Source: a virus. From it: DNA of 49,895 bases. Positions 1,639-30,084 of the stretch are shown here, piece after piece (positions within the stretch are counted from its first letter, which is position 1; each line of letters begins with the position of its first letter). The stretch lies in the IMG/VR virus record IMGVR_UViG_3300045988_177506. One strand, 5' to 3'. A model generated the notes under the pieces. It did not search any database, had not been told where the DNA came from, and saw only the letters and a program-made list of their open reading frames with translations. Position numbers and translations under genes: made by a program.

Positions 1639-1667
1639 TTGACAACCTCTTTTTTATGTGTTATAAT
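1639..1667 (+). promoter_or_regulatory. Perfect sigma-70 consensus promoter TTGACA-17-TATAAT (+ strand)
   Basis: ttgacaacctcttttttatgtgttataat. No ORF downstream. Confidence 0.7.
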
Positions 1668-1674
1668 AGCCACG

Positions 1675-2525
1675 AAATGTAGGGCTTCACCTACCGCGCA
1701 ATATGTTTTGACCTAAAGTATTGCCATTTCCTAACTGCATATTTGGATGTCAAAGTTCTCGCATATGTTTCTGGGTCTCTCGAAAGAGAAAACATATCGG
1801 GGGCTTTTTCTTATACTTTGACATTAAATCGCGAAAGTTGTCCTGCGTTAAAAGGTACAACGGGTGGCTCTGAGTTCAAACACGTGAAGAGCAACTGCAA
1901 AGTGGGGTAAACGCTATGATACCACAATAATCTCGACGGCGGGCTTGGTGAACTGATTTTAGATAGGCAGTGGAGCGCAGGGCAGTTCTTGTGCGACGAT
2001 ACTGTGTGTAGCTGAAATGCTACACGTATGCGTGTTTGACAAGGGCTTGTTGGGTAGAAACTTCAACGACGGACGATGAAGACGTCTTTATTCTCTTGTG
2101 TGTACTTGTTCCTCTTTTGCAGGGATAGGTATGCACAAGAGCGTGAGTGAGTATGTTCTTAACTCTGAACGATGTACCATGTACTAATAAACTAAGTACA
2201 GAGTATATAGAGTATAAGATTACTACTAAGCATATCGGTAATATAACATGGAATACTCGTATAATTACGAATAAATAAGCAATAGAAGAAGAAATAGTTT
2301 ACATATACTAAACAAATAGAGATAGTATACAAAGAAAAATAAAAAACACGTGTCCGAGGTAACAGATGGTAAGCAATGGACACAGATAGAAGTGAAACAG
2401 TTAGTTCGCTTATTAACTCTTAAAGACAGAGCTGCTTCATATGTTTTATTCATATTTATCCTTTACAAGAGGGGTGACCCGTTCAGTTTTCGATGATTTA
2501 CTGGGCGGGTTGCTTCTTTTTTATT
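1675..2525 (+). ncRNA. Candidate large non-coding RNA (about 850 nt), running from promoter to terminator with no ORF
   Basis: No ORF of 60 aa or more in any frame across 1503..2805, apart from two low-complexity antisense ORFs. Bounded by the consensus promoter and an intrinsic terminator. Contains hairpins (e.g. catatgttt...aaacatatc, cttcaacgacggacgatgaag) and an AT-rich low-complexity segment. Confidence 0.45.
2477..2525 (+). terminator. Rho-independent terminator ending the ORF-free + strand unit
   Basis: Stem ACCCGTTCAG/CTGGGCGGGT (10 bp including two G-U pairs) followed by TGCTTCTTTTTTATT. Confidence 0.6.
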
Positions 2526-2761
2526 GGTAGAAAACCCACATATTGCGATAACAACAAATAAGCTTTCTTCCAAAGAAATGCGATCTCGCTCTTAAAAAGC
2601 TAAAAATTAGCAATAATTTCGTGAAATTTGCAAGTCCCGTAAACAATATCTATTCAGCATTGCGATATTAGTGCGAGATTTAAGCTGTGTTGCGTTTTAT
2701 CGTTTCGGTAGGGTAAATTTACGTTTGATAAACAATTCCCGTTAAAATTGAAATTTTAAGG

Positions 2762-2799
2762 CAAAAAAAGACAGCCCAACTCGTGAGAGAAGAGCTGTC
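2762..2799 (-). terminator. Rho-independent terminator at the 3' end of the late (-) operon
   Basis: rc reads GACAGCtcttctctcacgagttggGCTGTCttttttt, immediately after the stop of the 2805..3170 gene. Confidence 0.65.
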
Positions 2800-2804
2800 A
2801 AGCG

Positions 2805-19525: not shown

Positions 19526-20053
19526 TTAATCCGTAATACGTTTTTTAGTGGTTCCCATATCGAGTTTGCCTGCCGTAGGTTCACTTTCAGGTGCAACGTA
19601 CAAGTCAAAATCAATACCCGAATTTGCTTCGGTGGACGGTAAGCCACGTTCAAGCGGTCTTCCACGGAAGAACAACGCATTATCAAAAGTCGGGGTAGTG
19701 CTACTGGGGTCTTTGACGGCAATAACAAACCACATCGCTTTTGTCGTGGAATTTTTATATGTTGCGACAGCAGTATCCCAAGCCGTGATTATCTCTTTGC
19801 CGTATCTTGCGCCAAAAGATATGTTATCAGGCATTTCACGAAGCAACGTAACTTTTGCCGTGTAAACAGTTTCATCAAACGAGGTCGCGTCAGCAGTACT
19901 CGGCGCAATGTTGAAGTCAGGCGTAGAGTACAAACCAGGCAGAGCTGTGAATGTAGTGGACGTAGTGACATCATCAATGGTGTTGGTGGTTACCGTGGTT
20001 AAAGCCGCATAGCCTACATACAGCCCTATGGAAGTAAGAGGTACATTAGCCAT
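19526..20053 (-). CDS. Major tail protein
   Basis: 175 aa, T/S-rich, between the tail completion proteins and the chaperones. Confidence 0.6.
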   Translation of the reverse strand: MANVPLTSIGLYVGYAALTTVTTNTIDDVTTSTTFTALPGLYSTPDFNIAPSTADATSFDETVYTAKVTLLREMPDNISFGARYGKEIITAWDTAVATYKNSTTKAMWFVIAVKDPSSTTPTFDNALFFRGRPLERGLPSTEANSGIDFDLYVAPESEPTAGKLDMGTTKKRITD

Positions 20054-20084
20054 AATATTTTTCTCCTATAAAAAATTTGTGTCA

Positions 20085-20522
20085 TTATGCCGACACATAA
20101 GGCAGTTTCAATTCTACATTGTATCGCAACGCGACAGTGTATGATTTTGAGCCGTCAAAAAATGTGTACGGCGTTGTCCTCATTACTTTTCGCATCGACA
20201 CAACTTTATCCGAATTTTTTTTGTAGTTGGTTAAAAAGTCTTCACAACAGTCTGCAATGACCATTGTATTCTTTATAGCCGTGTTTTCGCTTGTCTTTGC
20301 CCCGTAAAGAGTAATTTGCAAATCAATAGATGTGCTAACAACATCATTGTAATCCTCTAAATTATCGTTGTCGCCCAATATTTGCACTACATAGTAAGAC
20401 TTCGTTTCTGGAATTACACCATGCTGAAAAGCATAGTAGCCTTTCGGTTTTTCTGTAAGTCTTGGCGTAGCAATAAATTGTGCGTCGATATATTTAATTA
20501 AATCGTCAATGAAATCTGTCAT
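20085..20522 (-). CDS. Tail terminator / tail completion protein
   Basis: Position in the conserved head-tail joining cluster. Confidence 0.45.
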   Translation of the reverse strand: MTDFIDDLIKYIDAQFIATPRLTEKPKGYYAFQHGVIPETKSYYVVQILGDNDNLEDYNDVVSTSIDLQITLYGAKTSENTAIKNTMVIADCCEDFLTNYKKNSDKVVSMRKVMRTTPYTFFDGSKSYTVALRYNVELKLPYVSA

Positions 20523-21025
20523 TATTCACCTCTATTAAGGTCAATTACAAGCTGCTCTTTTATATACTCTTTTATGTTTTCTCCGGCATGATACATAGGC
20601 GCTTTTGCAGCATAACCTTGAAAAAATCTGTATAGTGGTTTTGTGCCTTTGTCTAACCGCAAAATCCAACCACGCTTTCCGCTTTTTGTGGTAATTTTTT
20701 TGTTAGACGGATAATGGTACATCCACGCACCTGTCAGAGGAACTCCTTTTTTCGGTAACTCCCCAGGATACGTTCCTTTGCCCTTTTCGCCAATACCAAA
20801 CTCCATATACGCGACATGTGGCTTTTCACTTATGTCTTGTGCAATGATTTGGACATTCTTTGTGGTTTGTTTTGTATAGACTGAAGCACTACCTTGCCAT
20901 TGTTCCAAGACAAGCTGTTTGCCTTCTTCCGCAATATTATCCAGCATAGCGCGTTTAGTATCTTTTGGATTAGCGTTATTAACTTTTGTTAAAAACCTAT
21001 CAAGGTCGTTATGCACCCAACGCAT
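20522..21025 (-). CDS. HK97 gp10-like head-tail joining protein
   Basis: Size and position; typical phage neck protein. Confidence 0.45.
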   Translation of the reverse strand: MRWVHNDLDRFLTKVNNANPKDTKRAMLDNIAEEGKQLVLEQWQGSASVYTKQTTKNVQIIAQDISEKPHVAYMEFGIGEKGKGTYPGELPKKGVPLTGAWMYHYPSNKKITTKSGKRGWILRLDKGTKPLYRFFQGYAAKAPMYHAGENIKEYIKEQLVIDLNRGE

Positions 21026-21371
21026 AGATGGAAGCCGTCCTTTTGAGAATAAGTCTAATGCGGAAATTGCCGTTATCTACAAAGTCAACACTGTAGTTCG
21101 CGTTCTGCCCGTAGTATTCTTCTTCATCGCTTGGTTTCGCACCGTTAATATAGAAAAGGTCACCTTCGGAAAACACGCCCGCCCACTTAGCGTAAGGTTG
21201 TGCAACACATGATGCGTAGCGTTCAGTATATTCACCGACTTCCGCAGTATTCCAGTCACCAGAACGGTCTACAACGGTAAAATATCCAAGCCTTGTCGTA
21301 ATTTCAACAGGCTCAGAATAAGCATCGTTATCTATCCGTTTGCAATACCATATTTTTTCGCCTATTCTCAT
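21009..21371 (-). CDS. Head closure / head-tail adaptor protein
   Basis: Position in the neck gene cluster. Confidence 0.4.
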   Translation of the reverse strand: MRIGEKIWYCKRIDNDAYSEPVEITTRLGYFTVVDRSGDWNTAEVGEYTERYASCVAQPYAKWAGVFSEGDLFYINGAKPSDEEEYYGQNANYSVDFVDNGNFRIRLILKRTASIYALGA

Positions 21372-21715
21372 TTCGGCACCGCTCCTCGTGGCATAAGCAT
21401 ATCGATTAGACCGTTATCAATGCCACTGCTTGAAAACTCAAACGAAAGATTGTTTTCGCTGTATCTTTTTACGCCTCTCGGTACACCTGCACGGTCGCAA
21501 ATGTCTGCCATACGTGCGGACAACCAATGTAAAACAATAAAATCGTATATAAGTTCGTCGGGTGTCGGACGATTGATATCGCACGGGTATTTTATGAGCA
21601 AATAATCGCCTAATGCAATGTTGAATACTTCATCGGCTTGTGTTTCGCTTAGTCCGTATTGTTTTGCTGTTTGACACTTTATTTGCTGTACTTGTGCTTG
21701 TTCTTTGCTTGTCAT
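21368..21715 (-). CDS. Head-tail connector (gp6-like) protein
   Basis: Position directly after the capsid module. Confidence 0.45.
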   Translation of the reverse strand: MTSKEQAQVQQIKCQTAKQYGLSETQADEVFNIALGDYLLIKYPCDINRPTPDELIYDFIVLHWLSARMADICDRAGVPRGVKRYSENNLSFEFSSSGIDNGLIDMLMPRGAVPK

Positions 21716-21914
21716 TATGTTCGTCCTCCAACCCTAAAAAAGGAAAGGACTTTTGGCTTTCATCTACGCTTTCAATATCAATGTACGGGCGAAAAACGTT
21801 CAGTTCTTCTTCGTTAACACACATTTCTATTCTCTGCCGTGGCTTAAAATACATACCTCGTATTATAAGCGTGCATTTTGCATATCCTTTTAAGTCAAAA
21901 GTCCTTGTAATCAT
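21630..21914 (-). CDS. Hypothetical small protein (start uncertain; overlaps the next gene by 86 nt)
   Basis: Fills the 200-nt gap after the major capsid gene. Confidence 0.3.
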   Translation of the reverse strand: MITRTFDLKGYAKCTLIIRGMYFKPRQRIEMCVNEEELNVFRPYIDIESVDESQKSFPFLGLEDEHNDKQRTSTSTANKVSNSKTIRTKRNTSR

Positions 21915-22922
21915 TTACGCGTTTACCTTGCAGATATAGATCTGCTTTACGTCATGCGGTACGGGAAGTCCCAAGCCGCTTGCTTTGGTGAATATGCCGA
22001 CAGGATCGCCGGAAGCTACATACTGATAAATCGAAACATAGCCCTGCGAATACTGCGCAAGTCCAGCATCTTCTTCGGGCGTGGAAGTCATAAAGGTCTT
22101 ACCAACTTCGCCGCGAGTAGCAAGGAAACAAATTGCATCTTCGCTGAAGAAATTCTTTTCAGTGGTTTCTTTTGCTCCGATTTTGTAAGTGCCGTCATAT
22201 ACAACGAATTCGATGCCGAAATAGTTCTGGATATAACTCTTTGCAAAATCTTCGGTCACATAAACGCCCTGATTGGAAGCGATGGAACCAAGCTTGGTAT
22301 TGTTAAGAATATAGCCCATAACTTTGCTGGTGCAAATAGCGCGGACAATTCTGCCCTTGCCTGCCTGTTTAATCTTTGCGAGATCGCCGAGAATATCATG
22401 GCTTGCAGTAGCCCAATCCTTAACTACGATATGGTTCTCTTCGGGGAGATGATAATCGATAGTAAGGTTGAGGTTGTTTTCCTTTACGGTAACCTGTCCG
22501 CTGGAAAGCAGTTCGCACGCCATAACCTCGAAACGAGTAAGCACACGAGAAATCAGGTTTGCCGCGTCGTTGTATACGGCTTCGATAATCGCACGCTCTT
22601 CTTTCGACATGCCCATATCGCGGATTTTCTTGCGCAGAGCTTCACCCTGGTCAAGTTTTTCCTTGACAAGCAGCATCTCGAAGTTGATTTCCTTGAAATC
22701 GGGTCTGTCGCCAATTTTAGCTTCAGTATCCAAAGCATGGACAAGTGCCATTACCGGTACATCAGCGCCCTTTACGAAGTCTGCAATTGCAAGCTTCATA
22801 TTTTCCGTTTTGAACATCGGGAACAGTTTAAGTCCCAAGAATTCTTTGGTAGCACGGAGATAATCAAAATCTTCGCTTATTTCTACCCAAGTTTTGCCGT
22901 TAAGCATTCCTACGTAATCCAT
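21915..22922 (-). CDS. Major capsid protein (lambda gpE-like family)
   Basis: 335 aa, positioned after the scaffold and decoration-like genes in the lambda-like order Nu3-D-E. Confidence 0.65.
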   Translation of the reverse strand: MDYVGMLNGKTWVEISEDFDYLRATKEFLGLKLFPMFKTENMKLAIADFVKGADVPVMALVHALDTEAKIGDRPDFKEINFEMLLVKEKLDQGEALRKKIRDMGMSKEERAIIEAVYNDAANLISRVLTRFEVMACELLSSGQVTVKENNLNLTIDYHLPEENHIVVKDWATASHDILGDLAKIKQAGKGRIVRAICTSKVMGYILNNTKLGSIASNQGVYVTEDFAKSYIQNYFGIEFVVYDGTYKIGAKETTEKNFFSEDAICFLATRGEVGKTFMTSTPEEDAGLAQYSQGYVSIYQYVASGDPVGIFTKASGLGLPVPHDVKQIYICKVNA

Positions 22923-22934
22923 AGTTCACCTCCA

Positions 22935-23510
22935 TTAAGCCAAAGCCGTAACGGTTACAGAAGCCAAACCGCTCGACTTGTGGTTGATATTGTCGCCTAC
23001 TGCCTGCACATAGTAAGTGCCGGTTGCCGTTGCAGTGTAAGTGACTGCAGTCTGTTCGACAAGGACTTTCTTATCTTTGTCATATACTCTGTAGCCAACA
23101 GCATCGGTAACTGCCGCCCAAGCAACAGCCGCTTTGGTTGCCGAAGGAGCGGGGGTGGTAAGTGCGGGAAGTCCGCCATCGCCGAATGCAGGACGAGTGG
23201 TCGTACCCTCTGTAATGGGGAACAGTCCGGTCTTAGCAAAATTGTTAACCTGTGCAGAAGCAGTAGAGGGCAATTTCGCATCGATGTAATATCCGCCTAC
23301 CATAAGCGAACCTTGTTTTGCACCGTCGGTAATATCGACATCTTTGAAAAGCAGTCCATAATAAGGCGTGGTGAAAATCGTTCCAGCCTTAACAATGGTT
23401 CTGCCATCTTCTACGACGTGAGTTGCCGAAGTCGGTACGGTAATGGTTTTTGTAACAAGACCCACTTCACTACCAAGGAAGTTCGGTCTCTCTCTGTACA
23501 CTTTTTCCAT
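22935..23510 (-). CDS. Head decoration-like protein with a C-terminal Ig/FN3-like domain
   Basis: Lies between the scaffold and the major capsid protein. The C-terminal AVTDAVGYRVY...YYVQAVGDN is FN3-like. Confidence 0.45.
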   Translation of the reverse strand: MEKVYRERPNFLGSEVGLVTKTITVPTSATHVVEDGRTIVKAGTIFTTPYYGLLFKDVDITDGAKQGSLMVGGYYIDAKLPSTASAQVNNFAKTGLFPITEGTTTRPAFGDGGLPALTTPAPSATKAAVAWAAVTDAVGYRVYDKDKKVLVEQTAVTYTATATGTYYVQAVGDNINHKSSGLASVTVTALA

Positions 23511-23541
23511 AGTTGTACTCTCCTATTAAAATTTTTTTGAT

Positions 23542-24126
23542 TTAGAGTTCGACTATATCCGAGTTATCATTTTTCGCCTTTTTGGCTTGGAAGCGCTTGA
23601 AATCGCTCTCGGTGGCAGTCGTGCCTGCTCCCATTCTTTTGGATTGTTCAGCTTGTTTTATGCCGTTTGCCTTAAAAGACTTCTCTTGTTCCAAAAGCCG
23701 CGCTTTTATGATTTCGGCAAATGGCTTAATAAGCTCAATCGGGCAATTGGCGTTAAGCAAAACATCGCTTTCTTCGTTAGTGAAACCGTTCGCAAGACTT
23801 TCGTTTTTCGCTTTATAACGCGCTATCTCCTTGTCGGCAGCTTCCTTGCCTGCTTTAAGCGTTTCAAATTCAGCTTTTAAGCGTTCGATTTCCGGCAATT
23901 CTTCCATTGCTTTTTTCTTGCTCTCAGCCTCTTTGCGCTTATATTCGGCATTTTCGCTGTTGGTCTTGGAGATCGCATTTTTAAGTCTTTCGTTCTCCGC
24001 TTTCATCTGTGCAATCACTTCTGCATAGTTGTCGTTGGGTTGGGCTGCATTACCATATGCCCCCGTTCCCGTAACAGCCGTGGTTGCGGTCATTTCTGTG
24101 TTTTCCATAACACCCTCCTTGTGCAT
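23542..24126 (-). CDS. Scaffolding protein
   Basis: Coiled-coil, K/E-rich, between the portal and capsid genes. Confidence 0.6.
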   Translation of the reverse strand: MHKEGVMENTEMTATTAVTGTGAYGNAAQPNDNYAEVIAQMKAENERLKNAISKTNSENAEYKRKEAESKKKAMEELPEIERLKAEFETLKAGKEAADKEIARYKAKNESLANGFTNEESDVLLNANCPIELIKPFAEIIKARLLEQEKSFKANGIKQAEQSKRMGAGTTATESDFKRFQAKKAKNDNSDIVEL

Positions 24127-24180
24127 TTTTCCGACTTCCTTGTCGTTTGCGATTTTCGACTTCCCTGTCGTATTTTATAA

Positions 24181-25785
24181 TCACTCTTGCGAGATAATTA
24201 CGCCGTCAGCATCAGCGGTTGTCGTTTCAACCACGTTCTCTTTCGCTTTGATTTCTTCGTCCTTTCTATCCCAGTCATCGGCGACTGTATCAATATCGTT
24301 AAATAACTGTGCCGCTTTGAGAATATGTTTTTTAGGCATATTTGAGTTGTACAGTTCGCGTATGCTTTGTGCCTTTACAAGCAGATTATCATTCTTGTTA
24401 ATATTGTACTTGATATCAATTTGGCTCGCATACAATTCATTAACGGGACAGCTTGGCACGGTACGGCATATCATAAGCATCTTTTTCAAGATTGTATAAT
24501 CGCCGCGCAAAAGCGTTCTTATGTCATTGTTAATAAGCGTGTAGGCATTCTCCCAGCCCCCGCCTAAACGACGTGCATCGCCGGTATCCCCGCCGCTCGT
24601 TACTTGTCCGCTTGCAAGAGGTACCCCAGCGATATCGTACATTTTGCTGATACGCTGTTCGTAATATTGGTCAAGCCCGTCAAACGGAATTTCTACTTTA
24701 AGAGTAGTTAAGTCCGGCTGTGCCGATACCCCACCTTGTGCGGCAGGTAATATAATGGCGCCCGCAGCTATCATATCACGGATTTCGTCGGCTTTCAATT
24801 CTACACCCTTAAAAACAAAAATGACATTGGAATTTTGAACAACCATATCCGCAATGTTTGAAAGCAACATGTTGACAAGGTTAAACAAAGACCTATTAAG
24901 CTCAACCATTCCTATGCGCGATGAATTTATAGAATGTTCTGTAATCGGCAAATAATGTAACGTCTTATCCGGCAAATCAAGCTTGTGGACGTCTTCAATA
25001 TTCCGATAATTATTGTCACTTCCGCATTCAAAGTAAGCGTATTGAGTTTCAATCGATATGAGTTTCTTTATATCGACACTATCCGTTCCAACGTCTTGGT
25101 CAATTACCGACACACTGAACAGCGGCTCTTTCTTTTTGCCACTTGAATAAACAACAAAATTATCAACCGGCGACAAAACTTCGTATTCAAAGGGGGCTTC
25201 TGTTTCTATATTATACCCATCTTCGACCCCGGCGTATCTTAATAAAGGTTGCCCGTCAATCCCTACGTTTTTAGTTGGGAGAATTATGTCCGTGCGAGGA
25301 GCAACATAATCGACACCAATGCCAGTCGCGTATATCCATTCTTTCAAATCCTTGTCTTTCGAGAAAAAGTCAACATCCGTGAAGTATCTGCCAAGATAGG
25401 TCAAATCATCACTTTTGACGTCGCTTTTATGCGTATACTCACGAGTATCTCCAGTTAAAAAACCGACCTTGAATTGCACTTGTCTGAACGCGTGATTTTC
25501 AGTTATTTTATTGTTATTATATTCGTCCTTGTTATAAGGGCGCGTCTTGGTGTCAATATCTTGGTCACCTTTCATATAATCCCAAAAATACTGTATTTTT
25601 TTTGCGTTGTCGGAGTGCGTAGCAAAAATACGACCCATATATTTTTTAAGTATATCCAAGCCGTAACCGCTTTCAGGCGCGAAGTCGCTCGCCTCATACG
25701 GTATTTCTATCCGTTTTATTCCCTTGTATGACATTTTCGGTATATCCACGGTAAAATCTCCTTTTTCACCTATATAAAACCACAA
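24181..25785 (-). CDS. Portal protein (SPP1 gp6-like)
   Basis: 534 aa directly downstream of the large terminase. Confidence 0.75.
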   Translation of the reverse strand: MWFYIGEKGDFTVDIPKMSYKGIKRIEIPYEASDFAPESGYGLDILKKYMGRIFATHSDNAKKIQYFWDYMKGDQDIDTKTRPYNKDEYNNNKITENHAFRQVQFKVGFLTGDTREYTHKSDVKSDDLTYLGRYFTDVDFFSKDKDLKEWIYATGIGVDYVAPRTDIILPTKNVGIDGQPLLRYAGVEDGYNIETEAPFEYEVLSPVDNFVVYSSGKKKEPLFSVSVIDQDVGTDSVDIKKLISIETQYAYFECGSDNNYRNIEDVHKLDLPDKTLHYLPITEHSINSSRIGMVELNRSLFNLVNMLLSNIADMVVQNSNVIFVFKGVELKADEIRDMIAAGAIILPAAQGGVSAQPDLTTLKVEIPFDGLDQYYEQRISKMYDIAGVPLASGQVTSGGDTGDARRLGGGWENAYTLINNDIRTLLRGDYTILKKMLMICRTVPSCPVNELYASQIDIKYNINKNDNLLVKAQSIRELYNSNMPKKHILKAAQLFNDIDTVADDWDRKDEEIKAKENVVETTTADADGVIISQE

Positions 25786-25811
25786 AAAATCTGTTTTGTC
25801 AAGTGTTTTCG

Positions 25812-27698
25812 TTAAATTCTTATAATTTTTACCTTTTTACTGTCATTTTTTTGCCCGACAAAATGTTTAATGTACATACATTCTTCGTCAATGCTATCGT
25901 CGTATTCGAGTTTTTGAGTGTAATCATACGATGTTAAGTATGTCATAAACTTACCCATTGCGCTTGACTGAGCAAACATTCCAAAACATGGGTAGACCAT
26001 TACACGCTTAAAATAAGCCTCGTTTGCATATACAATCTCTTTCATTTTATCTTCTTTATTTTGCGTTGTATAAAACTCTTCTATTTCGCAAAAATCTGCG
26101 CCGGCTTTTGCCAATTTCGCTCTAAGCAAATTCCCCAATGATGTATCCGTATTATTTTCAACGGCAAGCCTGACAATGTGATGGTCAAGAACCTTTCTTA
26201 CTATCTTGTCGTAAACGTCTTGCATTATAGTCAGTTCAAATATACAATCCACTAAATAGTGCTTCTCGATAACAACGCCATACTCATTCTCTTCTTTCCT
26301 TACTCTGTGGATCCCCAACGTTACGTAGTTTTTACCGCTTCTTGCCGGGTCAAGGCACGCCAATGAATATCCGGACAGCCCTGCCGGTAATTCTGAATAT
26401 GTTTGCAGTTTATCGTAAGCCAACGGTGTTGTATCAGGATTTTGCGGGTTTTGTTGATACATTGCCTCAAACGTCTTATCATTGATAGCCCGCTTAGCCT
26501 CAAAGTGTTGAAGAGAAAATCTCAACGGGAAAGTTGACCTGTAGCTATCCATATCAATTGCCGGAACCTTTATAAACACGCAATCGCCTTTTTCGTTTTT
26601 ATAGGCGTACTTGAATATGTTCGTCCTAATAATCGTCCCACCACTATAATGCCGTATAAGCGTTGAAACAATGTCGTTAATATTATAAGCGGTGCCGCCA
26701 ACAACAATATAGAAATCATTTTCGTCATAATTACGGGTAGACCACTGGTTCCAATACATTTCAATATCAAACTGGTGTTGCTTAAGGTTAAGCATGTCTT
26801 TTGACCTGCAAATATCATCCAAAAACAGATACCTTGCTCTCACGCCATCGACAGGAGTATCTTTCGACACCACCCTGACATTCACAGGCTTATTACTATC
26901 CGTTAACGTAATATAGCCTTCCTTGTTCCGGCAAACAGAGAACATATCCATCGGATTTGCCCCGTCCTCAAAGTATTTAGCGTATAACGGGAACACTTTC
27001 CCAAAAAACGGTTTTTGCATGACGTCAACTATTGTTTTCGTGTTGTTGGTCACCAAAGACGGGTTTCCGACTACCTTTAAGACATCGTTGTTCGGGTCTA
27101 TTCCCAAAACCCACGCTATCGCCAATGCATCGCTTATAGATTTTCCGTAACCAACCGGGTATTGTTTACTAATAAAACGCACATTCTTTTTTATGACCAT
27201 CTGCGTAAAGTAGTAAGCAAACGGGCTTGTCACGCCTGTGTACTTATTGTCGTTGTATGGGTCAATAGTATTGGCAAACACCTTTCGCGTTTCCGGAAGA
27301 TCCCTTTCCCACAACAAACAGAATGTTTCTAAGTTTCTGAACGCCACTAAGTATTCCAACTCTTCATACACGTTTATGTATTCCGAAATGTACCCTTTCA
27401 GTTGTTCCTTTTCCTCGTCATCAACTCTTCTAAGCGCAGTGGTAAGCGATTTTATTTTGTCCTTGCATATCTTGAAATCATACCGCATTATCTGCCCAAT
27501 AAGCTTTACAATTTCCTCTTCCATCCCGTTAGGCGCAAAATATTCGTGTATCTGCTTTTTGAACAATCCGGCTCTCATCCCCAACAAATCCAACACCGTC
27601 GCGTCGTCATTGTAGCATTTCTGTATAAGCCGAACCTTGTCCAGCAAATCCCCGCTGCGCTCTATCGCCTCTTCATAGCTTTTCCCTTTCATCCTCAC
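25812..27698 (-). CDS. Terminase large subunit
   Basis: 628 aa with Walker A YPVGYGKS near the N-terminus; followed by the portal gene. Confidence 0.8.
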   Translation of the reverse strand: MRMKGKSYEEAIERSGDLLDKVRLIQKCYNDDATVLDLLGMRAGLFKKQIHEYFAPNGMEEEIVKLIGQIMRYDFKICKDKIKSLTTALRRVDDEEKEQLKGYISEYINVYEELEYLVAFRNLETFCLLWERDLPETRKVFANTIDPYNDNKYTGVTSPFAYYFTQMVIKKNVRFISKQYPVGYGKSISDALAIAWVLGIDPNNDVLKVVGNPSLVTNNTKTIVDVMQKPFFGKVFPLYAKYFEDGANPMDMFSVCRNKEGYITLTDSNKPVNVRVVSKDTPVDGVRARYLFLDDICRSKDMLNLKQHQFDIEMYWNQWSTRNYDENDFYIVVGGTAYNINDIVSTLIRHYSGGTIIRTNIFKYAYKNEKGDCVFIKVPAIDMDSYRSTFPLRFSLQHFEAKRAINDKTFEAMYQQNPQNPDTTPLAYDKLQTYSELPAGLSGYSLACLDPARSGKNYVTLGIHRVRKEENEYGVVIEKHYLVDCIFELTIMQDVYDKIVRKVLDHHIVRLAVENNTDTSLGNLLRAKLAKAGADFCEIEEFYTTQNKEDKMKEIVYANEAYFKRVMVYPCFGMFAQSSAMGKFMTYLTSYDYTQKLEYDDSIDEECMYIKHFVGQKNDSKKVKIIRI

Positions 27699-27849
27699 TC
27701 TCCGTCTTTATCCTATACTTTCTACGCAATAACGGCACCGAAAACTCTATAAGCTTTACCACCGGCACCCCCTTTATCGCTTTTATCCTATTCAATTCCC
27801 GCCACGTTTCTTCATTAACCGGGATCGCCTTCATTTTTTTCTTTTCCAT
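27673..27849 (-). CDS. Small RHH-like DNA-binding protein (58 aa) in the small-terminase position
   Basis: MEKKKMKAIPVNEETWRELNRIKAIKGVPVVKLIEFSV.... RBS AGGAGAG. Overlaps the TerL start by 26 nt. Confidence 0.5.
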   Translation of the reverse strand: MEKKKMKAIPVNEETWRELNRIKAIKGVPVVKLIEFSVPLLRRKYRIKTESEDEREKL

Positions 27850-27874
27850 ATCTCTCTCCTCTTTGCTTTTTTAT

Positions 27875-27903
27875 ATTATACTATAACTTTTTACTTTTGT
27901 CAA
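27875..27903 (-). promoter_or_regulatory. Perfect sigma-70 consensus promoter TTGACA-17-TATAAT driving the packaging/morphogenesis operon
   Basis: rc reads TTGACAaaagtaaaaagttatagTATAAT, about 25 nt before the RBS of the RHH-like ORF. Confidence 0.7.
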
Positions 27904-27912
27904 GTGTTAATA

Positions 27913-27944
27913 AGAGAAAAAACCCCGTACGGTTAAGCACGGGG
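27913..27944 (-). terminator. Intrinsic terminator (- strand) immediately upstream of the late promoter
   Basis: rc reads CCCCGTgcttaaccgtACGGGGttttttctc. Confidence 0.6.
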
Positions 27945-28037
27945 AAAACGAAGAAATCTGCACTTTTCCCTTTTCGCCCCCAAGATTTACCCTGAGGGCG
28001 CGGTGAGGGGGAAAATATGCAAAGGGAATTAACCCTA
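27913..28037 (-). ncRNA. Candidate small RNA (about 120 nt) from the consensus promoter at 28045..28073 to the terminator at 27913..27944
   Basis: Perfect promoter and terminator about 125 nt apart. No ATG and no ORF with an RBS. Internal hairpins (CCCUCAGGG, CCCCC...GGGGG). Confidence 0.45.
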
Positions 28038-28044
28038 CACCACT

Positions 28045-28073
28045 ATTATACAAGCTCTTTCCGCTTTTGTCAA
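28045..28073 (-). promoter_or_regulatory. Perfect sigma-70 consensus promoter TTGACA-17-TATAAT (- strand) inside the large intergenic region
   Basis: rc reads TTGACAaaagcggaaagagcttgTATAAT. Confidence 0.65.
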
Positions 28074-28149
28074 CTATTTTTGCAACATTTATTACACCAA
28101 TTTTTGCGATACACCCTCCACAACATTACCAAAATCACATCCTACAAAT

Positions 28150-29180
28150 ATCACTTTTGTCCATATTTTTAAGCCCCAATGTTCGTTTTGTCCATCACCG
28201 CAAATGCCAATATTTGGGAATTTAAACCCCCGCCACGCCACTTTTTATTTCTCTCTATTGCTTTTTCACTACCCATCTCCTATTCCTGTAGCTCTATCTC
28301 CAGATTACTAATCCCATAGCTTATCATATCCCTCTTGCTATTCATAACTACAGCACAGTCCCTCTTATTAACTCTCAAGACTTCTACTATCTACCCAATC
28401 CCCCATCCCCCCTTTCCCTTTGTTTTGTATTGCCTATTTATCTTGCTATTATTGCTTATTTCTTGTGCTATTTGGTATATCCCCAGCTATAGTACTATAA
28501 TATTTCTCTTGGCTTAGTGTAATTATTTTTTTTGTGTATATTCTTGGGAGTATACTATGAGAATTTTTTTGTGTATTTTTTGAGAGAGTAATAGCATAGT
28601 ACCCAAAAATGCAAAAAATAGGGGCGGGCGGGCATAAAAAACGCACCCACAACCACAGCCACGAACAGCAGTGCCCAAATAACGCCGAAAAATAGCCCTA
28701 ATTTCAGCGTAATATCTTTGGTAGGGTAAATTCACATTTGAAATATTAAAACGAAATACGGGGCAAATTTAAGCGTTTTAAGGGCATACGGGGAAAGGCA
28801 GACAACGGAGCGGGCGGCAAAACGTATTGCATAATATATATTATATATCATTACACGCACGAATAAATAATAATTACGCTTGTATAAATAACAAGACGAT
28901 TTACGACCAAATTGAACACGCGCATATATCTATATTTACACGCTATTATTATATCATTACAAGCGTATAAGAAATCTTTACGCCAATATTTGAGAAATTA
29001 ACCGCGGGGGGGGGTATTTCATAAGCTTGCCAAGATTTACAGGCGTATAGCTTTATAATCTACCGCAAACAATACGCACACGACGGAGCGGGCAACTTTT
29101 ACAAATGCCAATATTTGAGAAAATGCCAATATTTGGGAAACATACACCGCCGGCAAAATGTTCGTTTTGTCCATCTTTTT
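28150..29180. repeat. Iteron-like repeat cluster: GCCAATATTTG(G/A)GAA x4 (28205, 28982, 29105, 29124) and (G/C)TTTTGTCCAT x3 (28153, 28187, 29165); candidate origin or packaging region
   Basis: Repeats read directly. The last two GCCAATATTTG copies are tandem (atgccaatatttgagaaaatgccaatatttgggaaa). Confidence 0.5.
28260..28420. other. Strongly CT-rich (+ strand) low-complexity tract
   Basis: ctcccatctcctattcctgtagctctatctcc...caatcccccatcccccctttcccttt. Confidence 0.5.
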
Positions 29181-29343
29181 AGATATCAATTTTATCTATA
29201 TTTTTATCGATAAATCCATATCAATAAGAACAACCAATATATGCAAGACGCACAGAAAAAGCACGCGGAACTATGCAGGGCGCACAGCGGAAAACCAAAA
29301 AACAAAAAATCGTAAAAAATCTTAAAAAATCATACAAAAACGC

Positions 29344-29372
29344 TTGACAAGCGGGGGAAGGTGTGATATAAT
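29344..29372 (+). promoter_or_regulatory. Perfect sigma-70 consensus promoter TTGACA-17-TATAAT for the + strand cassette
   Basis: ttgacaagcgggggaaggtgtgatataat. The 5' leader carries a hairpin AGCTTG...CAAGCT. Confidence 0.7.
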
Positions 29373-29439
29373 GAAGGTGAGCTTGAAAGGAAACGCGAGG
29401 CGCGGCAAGCTTAAAAACAAAAAAACGGAGAAAACAAAA

Positions 29440-30084
29440 ATGAAAAAATTAAACGAAATCAGAGAAGAAAGACAGGCGAACGCGGCAAGGGTCGCAGAGC
29501 TTAACGAAAAAATTGACAGAGCAGTGAACAGCTGGCGGACGAAGGAGCCGTTTCCGGAAGACTTCGCGGCGTTGGGCGCCGAACTCGCGACGGCAAAGAA
29601 AATCGGGGCGATTTTGAAAAACAATTATAACAACCGACTCGCGGCGGAGGTGCTGCCGGCGTTGGTGGAAATCCTGAAAAAATACAACGGCAAGAAGTAC
29701 GGCGAAAAGACGAAGGAAAAGATGGGCGAAGAGTTCAAAGCGATGACGGGTTGCGGCATTTGGTTAGAGCGTTATGTGTTCTCGCAAAAAAGCAATCACG
29801 CCCATATATACGAGATGCGCGACGGATACAGACACGGCGAAGAAATCGAGTTTTTCACAAATTCAAATAACATCATCAGCGAAGACAACGTTATACAGGC
29901 GCAACCGGCGGAAGCTTTCAGACTTTACGACTTCGGCGAATATATCGAAACACCGGCGGAAAGGGTCGCACAGCTTGCGGAAAAGAAAAAAGAGCTTGAC
30001 GAGATGCGGGCGGCGTTCAATAAAGCGGTAGACGCTTACAACGCTTTGACCGTCAACGGCATTGACCACGAAAAAAGAGCATAA
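29440..30084 (+). CDS. Hypothetical protein (first gene of the GC-rich + cassette)
   Basis: Start MKKLNEIREE with GGAG 9 nt upstream. GC content is visibly higher than in the surrounding genome. Confidence 0.6.
   Translation: MKKLNEIREERQANAARVAELNEKIDRAVNSWRTKEPFPEDFAALGAELATAKKIGAILKNNYNNRLAAEVLPALVEILKKYNGKKYGEKTKEKMGEEFKAMTGCGIWLERYVFSQKSNHAHIYEMRDGYRHGEEIEFFTNSNNIISEDNVIQAQPAEAFRLYDFGEYIETPAERVAQLAEKKKELDEMRAAFNKAVDAYNALTVNGIDHEKRA

Follow-up and report, generated by a model that had tools for sequence, protein, structure and literature searches.

What is made from a stretch of about 120 nucleotides that lies between a perfect promoter and a strong terminator, immediately ahead of the promoter of the packaging genes of a gut phage? 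It could be a gene for a small RNA, a leader of the late genes or a small open reading frame, and its position raises the question of whether packaging is under its control. An earlier note, made from the letters of this DNA, had proposed a discrete small RNA that could insulate or regulate the packaging operon. Phage regulatory RNAs are well studied in phages of E. coli, for example, lambda 6S, PreS, StxS and P22 sar, while in Firmicutes phages of the gut they are, to our knowledge, almost unknown. On the basis of the comparisons described here, the unit appears to be a conserved, previously uncatalogued small-RNA transcription unit and can be considered a well-supported candidate gene. Control of the packaging operon by the RNA is not supported.

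The phage and the boundaries of the unit

The window, that is, the whole stretch of 49,895 nucleotides that was analysed, holds the genome of a phage from human gut metagenomes (about 50 kb), in complete or nearly complete form. ENA contig OPCN01000272 and IMG/VR UViG_3300045988_172603 represent this phage as well. Its DNA has no match among GenBank phages or plasmids, a search for tRNA and tmRNA genes found none, and there is no integrase among the proteins scanned. The large terminase is about 21% identical to Clostridium phage terminases, and a relative with 55% identity sits in an Acutalibacteraceae genome bin. A host belonging to the Clostridia is therefore likely for this uncultured siphovirus of the human gut.

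Homologues of the large terminase form a cluster at 99% identity that includes the window (lineage A) and a cluster at 75% (lineage B), followed by a gap down to 57% or less. The comparisons below concern 6 contigs of lineage A and 18 of lineage B, which were fetched and have enough upstream DNA. Many of the terminase homologues (P0020-P0022, P0037, P0045, P0054 and others) carry intein and LAGLIDADG insertions and measure 750-1030 aa, as against 626 aa where these are absent.

Packaging and structural genes occupy the - strand from 27849 down, a perfect promoter at 29344 opens an FtsK-like operon on the + strand, and replication and methylase genes are found on the - strand beyond 33.6 kb. 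A 1.5-kb spacer (27850..29343), devoid of conserved open reading frames and with iteron-like repeats, has the RNA unit at one edge. Promoter P2, next to the unit, precedes a gene of 58 aa, the large terminase and an SPP1-type portal, all in the same operon on the - strand. In every relative that was looked up, an orthologue of the 58-aa gene (56-69 aa) lies ahead of the large terminase. The elements of the locus are as follows:

28073..28045, - strand: promoter P1, of the small RNA; TTGACA (28073..28068), 17-nt spacer, TATAAT (28050..28045); 12 of 12 positions match
28041..27917, - strand: predicted small RNA of about 120-125 nt; predicted 5' end 28041..28038, 3' end in the U-run 27922..27917
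27944..27917, - strand: intrinsic terminator; CCCCGTGC-TTAACC-GTACGGGG (27944..27923), then TTTTTT (27922..27917)
27903..27875, - strand: promoter P2, of the packaging/late operon; TTGACA-17-TATAAT, 12 of 12 positions match; abuts the RNA unit and lies outside the RNA
27849..27673, - strand: first gene of the operon, 58 aa, assigned to no family; the large terminase (ATG 27692) begins within its end
27692..25812, - strand: large terminase, with an RNase H-like nuclease domain

The perfect - strand promoter that had been claimed for 28045..28073 is indeed there, with all twelve positions matching. Exact copies of TTGACA-N17-TATAAT number 6 in the window, where 0.04 would be expected, and 100 shuffled sequences never reached 6; therefore, perfect promoters seem to be a design feature of this genome and not a product of chance. 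The ends of the RNA are predictions, the start being placed by its distance to the -10 hexamer and the end by the terminator. The terminator has a stem of 8 pairs (6 of them G-C) and a loop of 6 nt, with an energy of -14.0 kcal/mol, and is located about 95 nt past promoter P1. The earlier description of it as a strong intrinsic terminator on the - strand holds, as it is the best terminator-like site in the scanned regions (the whole window minus 20001..25999). Its end had been put at 27913, which wrongly took in CTCT, and the distance from the T-run to the -35 hexamer of promoter P2 is 13 nt in the window, instead of the 10 bp given before; in the two lineages it is 13 nt and 8 nt.

No ATG occurs on the - strand within the RNA stretch. 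The only - strand open reading frame over the RNA (27907..28053, TTG start, 48 aa) begins inside the promoter, in agreement with the earlier statement that the stretch holds neither an ATG nor a reading frame with a ribosome-binding site. Peptides encoded by TTG-started frames of 11 or 12 codons on the RNA strand were considered and rejected: the frames differ with respect to the conserved block (see below) in the two lineages.

Conservation, fold and distribution of the RNA

The arrangement is the same in 24/24 contigs: perfect promoter P1, an RNA of 115-125 nt, a hairpin with a U-run, perfect promoter P2, the small gene and the terminase. Both hexamers of promoter P1 are perfect in every variant, promoter P2 is kept in both lineages, and throughout the two lineages a non-coding stretch of between 50 and 300 nt is bounded by its own promoter and its own intrinsic terminator. 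Each lineage contributes four distinct RNA variants. In lineage B the terminator reads CUGUCC-GAAC-GGGCGG followed by U7; it stands at the same place and shares no sequence with the lineage A terminator. Apparently, the terminator sequence is replaced between the lineages and its predicted function kept.

The block CCCTT(T/G)GCATATTTTCCC(C/T)CT (28026..28006; as RNA, CCCUUKGCAUAUUUUCCCYCU) is identical at 19 of 21 positions between the lineages, and its surroundings (376 nt) are about 64% identical. The mean unpaired probability of the block is 0.33-0.71, depending on the variant, and half of it is paired in the predicted fold. Its reverse complement, GAGGGGGAAAAUAUGCAA, resembles a Shine-Dalgarno sequence followed by a spacer and AUG; with up to 3 mismatches, it has no other copy in the window.

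Folding of the RNA stretch, as proposed in the earlier note, gives a minimum free energy of -50.8 kcal/mol (z = -4.3), and none of 200 shuffled sequences folded equally well. RNAalifold, applied separately to the four variants of lineage A and the four of lineage B, predicts one topology for both, in which the 5' strands occupy identical positions. The consensus architecture consists of a 5' hairpin P1, a long-range helix P3a/P3b, a C-rich internal loop, an apical hairpin P2 and the terminator, in which the following elements are distinguished:

28023..28036, - strand: hairpin P1 at the 5' end, AGGG-UUAAUU-CCCU, in both lineage consensus folds
28006..28026, - strand: conserved pyrimidine-rich block CCCTTTGCATATTTTCCCCCT; 5' strands of P3a and P3b and start of the C-rich internal loop
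27975..28000, - strand: apical hairpin P2, a 10-bp G+C-rich stem with the loop GUAAAU; -17.1 kcal/mol, z = -4.7
27958..27970, - strand: 3' strands of P3b and P3a (GGGAAAA GUGCAG), pairing with the conserved block

Differences between the lineages tend to leave this fold in place. Hairpin P1 becomes GGGUG-AAA-CACCC in lineage B, with three G-C pairs invariant. In hairpin P2, two pairs have changed on both sides (A-U to G-C and G-U to U-G), three have changed on one side and none is broken. The P3a pair U20-A82 of lineage A (U-G in one variant) is G-C in lineage B. Overall, three of the 21 homologous pairs compared between the lineages have changed on both sides and four on one side. Within lineage A, the variable helix positions (3/3) are A/G changes opposite U. 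The exceptions are a C.A in P3a of the L207 type, a C.A in hairpin P1 of L081 and a terminal U.U of P3a in three A variants. These counts of pairs are based on a correspondence defined by hand instead of a joint covariance model of both lineages, since MAFFT misaligns the 3' halves. As there are only two independent lineages, the covariation amounts to only three events; it is modest and statistically weak, yet consistent and independent of the alignment program.

The earlier note had also linked the unit to a second site through a shared motif. The 11-mer concerned, CCAAGATTTAC, is found at 27980..27990 and at 29030..29040 (not at 29027..29037). One near-identical variant reads GTAAAACTTGG at this site, the sequence of lineage B is different there, and the 9-mers shared genome-wide with the hairpin that holds the 11-mer number about 9 against an estimated 7 or so expected. 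The repeat is therefore most likely due to chance.

Outside the two lineages the RNA is absent from the relatives examined. Those with a terminase at most 57% identical keep a P2-like promoter and the small gene, with a DnaG-zinc-ribbon gene upstream and no RNA. When the conserved 5' half of the RNA was used as an nhmmer query on related and chance-matched loci totalling about 1.8 Mb, nothing outside lineages A and B was returned, except for weak matches to loci that had been fetched via an exact 16-mer scan. Two pattern scans of IMG/VR for the conserved block found the phage's own contig and chance matches in coding DNA only, and a protein-anchored scan of JGI metagenomes yielded two near-identical contigs only. 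The whole window has no match in Rfam 15 at gathering thresholds. With permissive filters, the best match in 27600..29500 is anti-hemB, with 22.9 bits against a threshold of 49.5 (E = 0.015), and it is driven by the terminator.

Because it is absent from the relatives at 57% or less, the unit can be regarded as an accessory cassette that belongs to one clade and brings its own promoter and terminator. In this respect, it is reminiscent of the morons of Hendrix and colleagues, which are reportedly extra transcription units with their own promoter and terminator, situated between conserved genes. The unit likewise extends from promoter to terminator between two conserved modules; lineages A and B possess it, and the more distant relatives lack it at the same site. 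Classical morons are protein-coding and were defined in temperate phages, whereas the cassette described here encodes an RNA, in a phage with no integrase in the proteins scanned. The unit is compact (a 230-bp fragment), has clear boundaries and recurs in dozens of human-gut assemblies.

Coding capacity was also considered on the opposite strand. Open reading frames of 45-51 aa start at the block on the + strand in most variants of both lineages, and in L001 the frame reads to 97 aa. Their products differ by many residues even within a lineage, vary in length and have GRAVY values of -0.27 to 0.5, so they are not hydrophobic. Products of lineages A and B agree only where the hexamers on the other strand force the residues (YT from TATAAT, CQ from TTGACA). 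Neither strand, as judged from these comparisons, encodes a conserved peptide; therefore, the constraint seems to act on the nucleotide sequence, most simply on an RNA. The notion of a discrete small-RNA unit, and not a leader or a reading frame, is thereby supported, with promoter, fold and terminator kept in 24 contigs and no conserved peptide on either strand.

Proposed action of the RNA and alternative explanations

The anatomy of the unit, its conservation, the shared fold and the absence of coding are matters of observation. The unit is likely to be a discrete gene for a small RNA. The explanation that we prefer is that of a self-contained accessory sRNA gene, the product of which acts in trans via the conserved block. 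We infer its expression, its action in trans and the pairing, and give this full explanation a nearly even chance. Taken by itself, the proposition that the RNA works by base-pairing through the block is tentative, with the chances leaning somewhat against it.

The proposed course of events is as follows. RNA polymerase of the host, with its primary sigma factor, would initiate at the perfect promoter P1, transcribe about 120 nt and be released at the strong intrinsic terminator. The product would consist of the 5' hairpin, a long hairpin (P3 and P2) with the C-rich internal loop, and the terminator hairpin. Its functional surface would be the pyrimidine-rich block together with the adjoining C-rich loop. 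Acting in trans, the RNA would most likely pair with purine-rich regions around Shine-Dalgarno sequences and start codons. The targets would be mRNAs that are not recognisable in the window, probably mRNAs of the host, as for the C-rich sRNAs of Firmicutes. Should the anti-RBS block indeed be directed at host mRNAs, this group of phages would offer a case of host takeover at the level of RNA.

The base-pairing sRNAs of the RsaE/RoxS type in Firmicutes carry a C/U-rich stretch that is complementary to Shine-Dalgarno regions (PMC6158497). The RNA described here resembles them in being short, in having its own promoter and terminator, and in the C/U-rich stretch in or beside loops, a likeness of motif only. 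It differs from them in that there is no sequence or Rfam match and no statistically supported target, and in that the motif is partly buried in a helix.

Targets were sought in three ways within the phage, namely by a duplex scan, by energies at translation starts and by alignment with a pairing score, and none of these gave a site that beats shuffled controls. In the genome-wide duplex scan, the best non-self duplex has an energy of -29 kcal/mol, and shuffled seeds give values from -25.7 to -34.7. Among translation-start regions, the leader of the gene that follows the portal (23542..24126) comes first in both lineages. It was rejected as a target, as shuffled blocks match or beat it in 58-90% of trials; its conservation is uninformative, since this stretch is more than 90% identical between the lineages anyway, for unrelated reasons. 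The RNA thus has a conserved seed (19/21), and no complementary site better than chance is found within the phage.

The suggestion that the unit insulates or regulates the packaging operon has to be divided. As a side effect of termination, all transcription arriving from upstream would be halted 13 nt before promoter P2, and it is plausible that the terminator shields the packaging promoter in this way. Regulation of the operon by the RNA finds no support. Relatives that lack the RNA keep the layout of promoter, small gene and terminase, and pairing of the RNA with the leaders of the 58-aa gene and the terminase is unremarkable, no better than with shuffled controls. A further RNA for comparison is the pRNA of phi29, the functional core of which is about 120 nt. 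Both are phage RNAs of this size, transcribed from a strong promoter and encoded beside packaging functions. In contrast to phi29, there is no match to pRNA in Rfam, and the phage possesses a large terminase of the classical kind, whose nuclease domain is RNase H-like, as well as an SPP1-type portal. We know of no system with a large terminase and SPP1-type portal that uses an RNA.

The RNA might act in trans by binding a protein instead of an mRNA, for example by keeping a defence or RNA-binding protein of the host occupied as a decoy or sponge. This is unlikely, and so is the associated idea that the two hairpins and the conserved block together form a recognition surface. In favour of protein binding, the loop motif of hairpin P2, G(G/A)UAAA(A/U), is kept while the stem has changed, and no mRNA target was found within the phage. 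Furthermore, the pattern AGGGTWAATY occurs twice in the RNA, in hairpin P1 and in the loop of hairpin P2, with two other copies in non-coding regions. However, a candidate partner protein is lacking, the test of this pattern was post hoc, and hairpin P1 of lineage B (GGGUGAAACACCC) fits it only loosely. The present data do not separate protein binding from base-pairing.

According to another explanation, the unit is a leader that acts in cis. Late genes of lambdoid phages have no promoter of their own after tR' and depend on Q. By analogy, promoter P1 would be the regulated late promoter, the terminator would be bypassed through a phage factor or the RNA itself, and the short RNA would be a by-product. 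The factor could be Q-like or N-like, or the RNA could resemble the put elements of HK022, which act in cis to suppress a terminator, or the EAR element of Bacillus. We consider this improbable as well. The position does recall PR'-tR', with a constitutive-looking promoter and a short terminated transcript followed by late genes (PMC7547250; bioRxiv 10.1101/2024.10.31.621285). The block at +15 to +35 contains hexamers resembling a -10 element (CATATT, TATTTT), at which a sigma-bound polymerase could conceivably pause. In lineage A, two alternative partners are available to the sequence GGGAAAA, the 5' UUUUCCC and a second UUUUCCC overlapping the terminator stem, as in an attenuator.

Several features speak against the cis-acting leader. 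A perfect promoter P2 lies between the terminator and the operon in both lineages, and distant relatives use P2 alone. The alternative pairing of GGGAAAA with UUUUCCC is absent in lineage B. An attenuator or riboswitch was rejected on the same ground: only lineage A shows a potential pairing in competition with the terminator stem, and lineage B has nothing equivalent. A Pfam scan of 55 proteins reveals no Q-type antiterminator, sigma factor or late-activator family. Moreover, there is no strong terminator in the operon upstream of about 6800 in the scanned parts, those outside 20001..25999, and processive antitermination would therefore have no obvious obstacle to overcome.

The comparison with lambda 6S and StxS is instructive on this point. 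The lambda 6S RNA is about 194 nt long and is present in the lysogenic as well as the lytic state (bioRxiv 10.1101/2024.10.31.621285), while StxS, from Shiga-toxin phages, illustrates that such an RNA can turn into a trans-acting regulator (PMC7547250). As for lambda 6S (PR'-tR') and StxS, there is a consensus promoter, a short transcript and a strong terminator, directly upstream of late genes. Unlike in those cases, a perfect promoter follows the terminator, relatives manage without the RNA, and no Q family is detected. With a Gram-positive host and no similarity of sequence, the likeness is one of position only. In short, a short terminated transcript is found as in a lambda-type late unit, while promoter-free read-through into the late genes and a gene of the Q family are not. 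Similarly, the hairpins are located right after a strong promoter and right before a terminator, as in put and EAR. Here, in contrast, conservation of the terminator as a functional element is strong, a promoter comes after it, and the scanned parts downstream yielded no strong terminators that would have to be suppressed.

A third explanation is at the level of DNA. The act of transcription would be what matters, the promoter and terminator would serve as an insulating pair, and the RNA would be a by-product; together with the divergent promoter at 29344 on the + strand, negative supercoiling might be fed into an origin of replication or a packaging site. Both parts of this reading are rather improbable. 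They agree with a spacer (27850..29343) that lacks a conserved reading frame, has iteron-like repeats at both ends, holds a highly conserved block of 55 nt and is flanked on both sides by divergent perfect promoters. The terminator also abuts promoter P2 in both lineages, at 13 nt and 8 nt. A by-product, however, would not be expected to keep a 19/21 block, a common fold and compensated pairs amid a drift to about 64% identity.

It is quite improbable that a cis antitermination element, either put-like or working with an unrecognised phage factor, turns the polymerases from P1 into terminator-resistant ones. If it were true, the packaging/late operon would have two inputs, a plain one from P2 and a switchable, processive one from P1, and a lambda-style late switch would exist in a phage of Clostridia, made up of unrelated parts. 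Finally, it is scarcely credible that the conserved block is the ribosome-binding site and ATG of a small + strand protein (28017..28172, 51 aa), possibly an RNA-controlled type I toxin: GAGGGGGAAAATATG on the + strand does read as a textbook Shine-Dalgarno sequence, spacer and start, but the antisense frame is unconserved beyond the positions fixed by the promoter, variable in length and not hydrophobic, and the closest + strand promoter-like site upstream of 28017 is at 26454, inside the terminase gene, so that a type I toxin-antitoxin pair was rejected.

Other features of the non-coding regions

The spacer and a second non-coding region contain several further elements. Just upstream of promoter P1, both lineages have a purine-rich, C-poor tract of 300-450 nt (28240..28560 on the - strand of the window; 3180..3620 in L081). 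Gene callers place reading frames of 147-162 aa in it in lineage B, and no reading frame is conserved in lineage A. A related A/G-rich tract is found in the second non-coding region (2183..2316, + strand), with 65% identity over 119 nt (E = 4.6e-5). The purine-rich tract may belong to an origin or give rise to a long non-coding RNA.

Further into the spacer, a block of 55 nt (28727..28781) is 89% identical between the lineages, in surroundings that are otherwise 60-65% identical. It contains the inverted repeat TTAAAACG-20 nt-CGTTTTAA. The segment 28707..28741, which overlaps its low end, has a partial copy of 81% identity at 2692..2728. The 55-nt block is a candidate for an origin, a pac site or a nick site. 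The pattern AGGGTWAATY is located at 2710, 27984, 28027 and 28723, that is, four occurrences against 0.71 expected, for a pattern chosen post hoc; all four belong to the two non-coding regions and two of them to the small RNA.

Iteron-like repeats of lineage A (28147..28220 and 28977..29175) include four copies of CAAATGCCAATATTTGRGAA and three of AATGTTCGTTTTGTCCATC. Those of lineage B (L081, 2437..2538) are different, with units of the TCGATAT type, a period of 14 nt and 7.5 copies. The difference points to a DNA-binding protein specific to the lineage, which would be an initiator or a repressor.

The break points differ among independent assemblies of this phage of about 50 kb. OPCN01000272 stops within the spacer, some 1613 nt upstream of the terminase gene, the end of contig L205 corresponds to window position 29311, and several lineage B contigs start in the spacer. 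This fits a circularly permuted or circular genome, or breaks at repeats.

A second small RNA may be encoded at 1639..1850 on the + strand. A perfect promoter (1639..1667, + strand) opens a non-coding region of about 1.1 kb (1640..2800) with no reading frame above 55 aa. The first 160 nt or so after this promoter form hairpins and end in CGGGGGCTTTTTC near 1800 (fold z = -2.6). Relatives with a terminase of about 56% identity (L082, 1974..2350; L083, 968..1700) have a consensus promoter and a structured leader of 100-200 nt before replication genes, and it may be common in this group of phages for a strong promoter to be followed by a structured leader.
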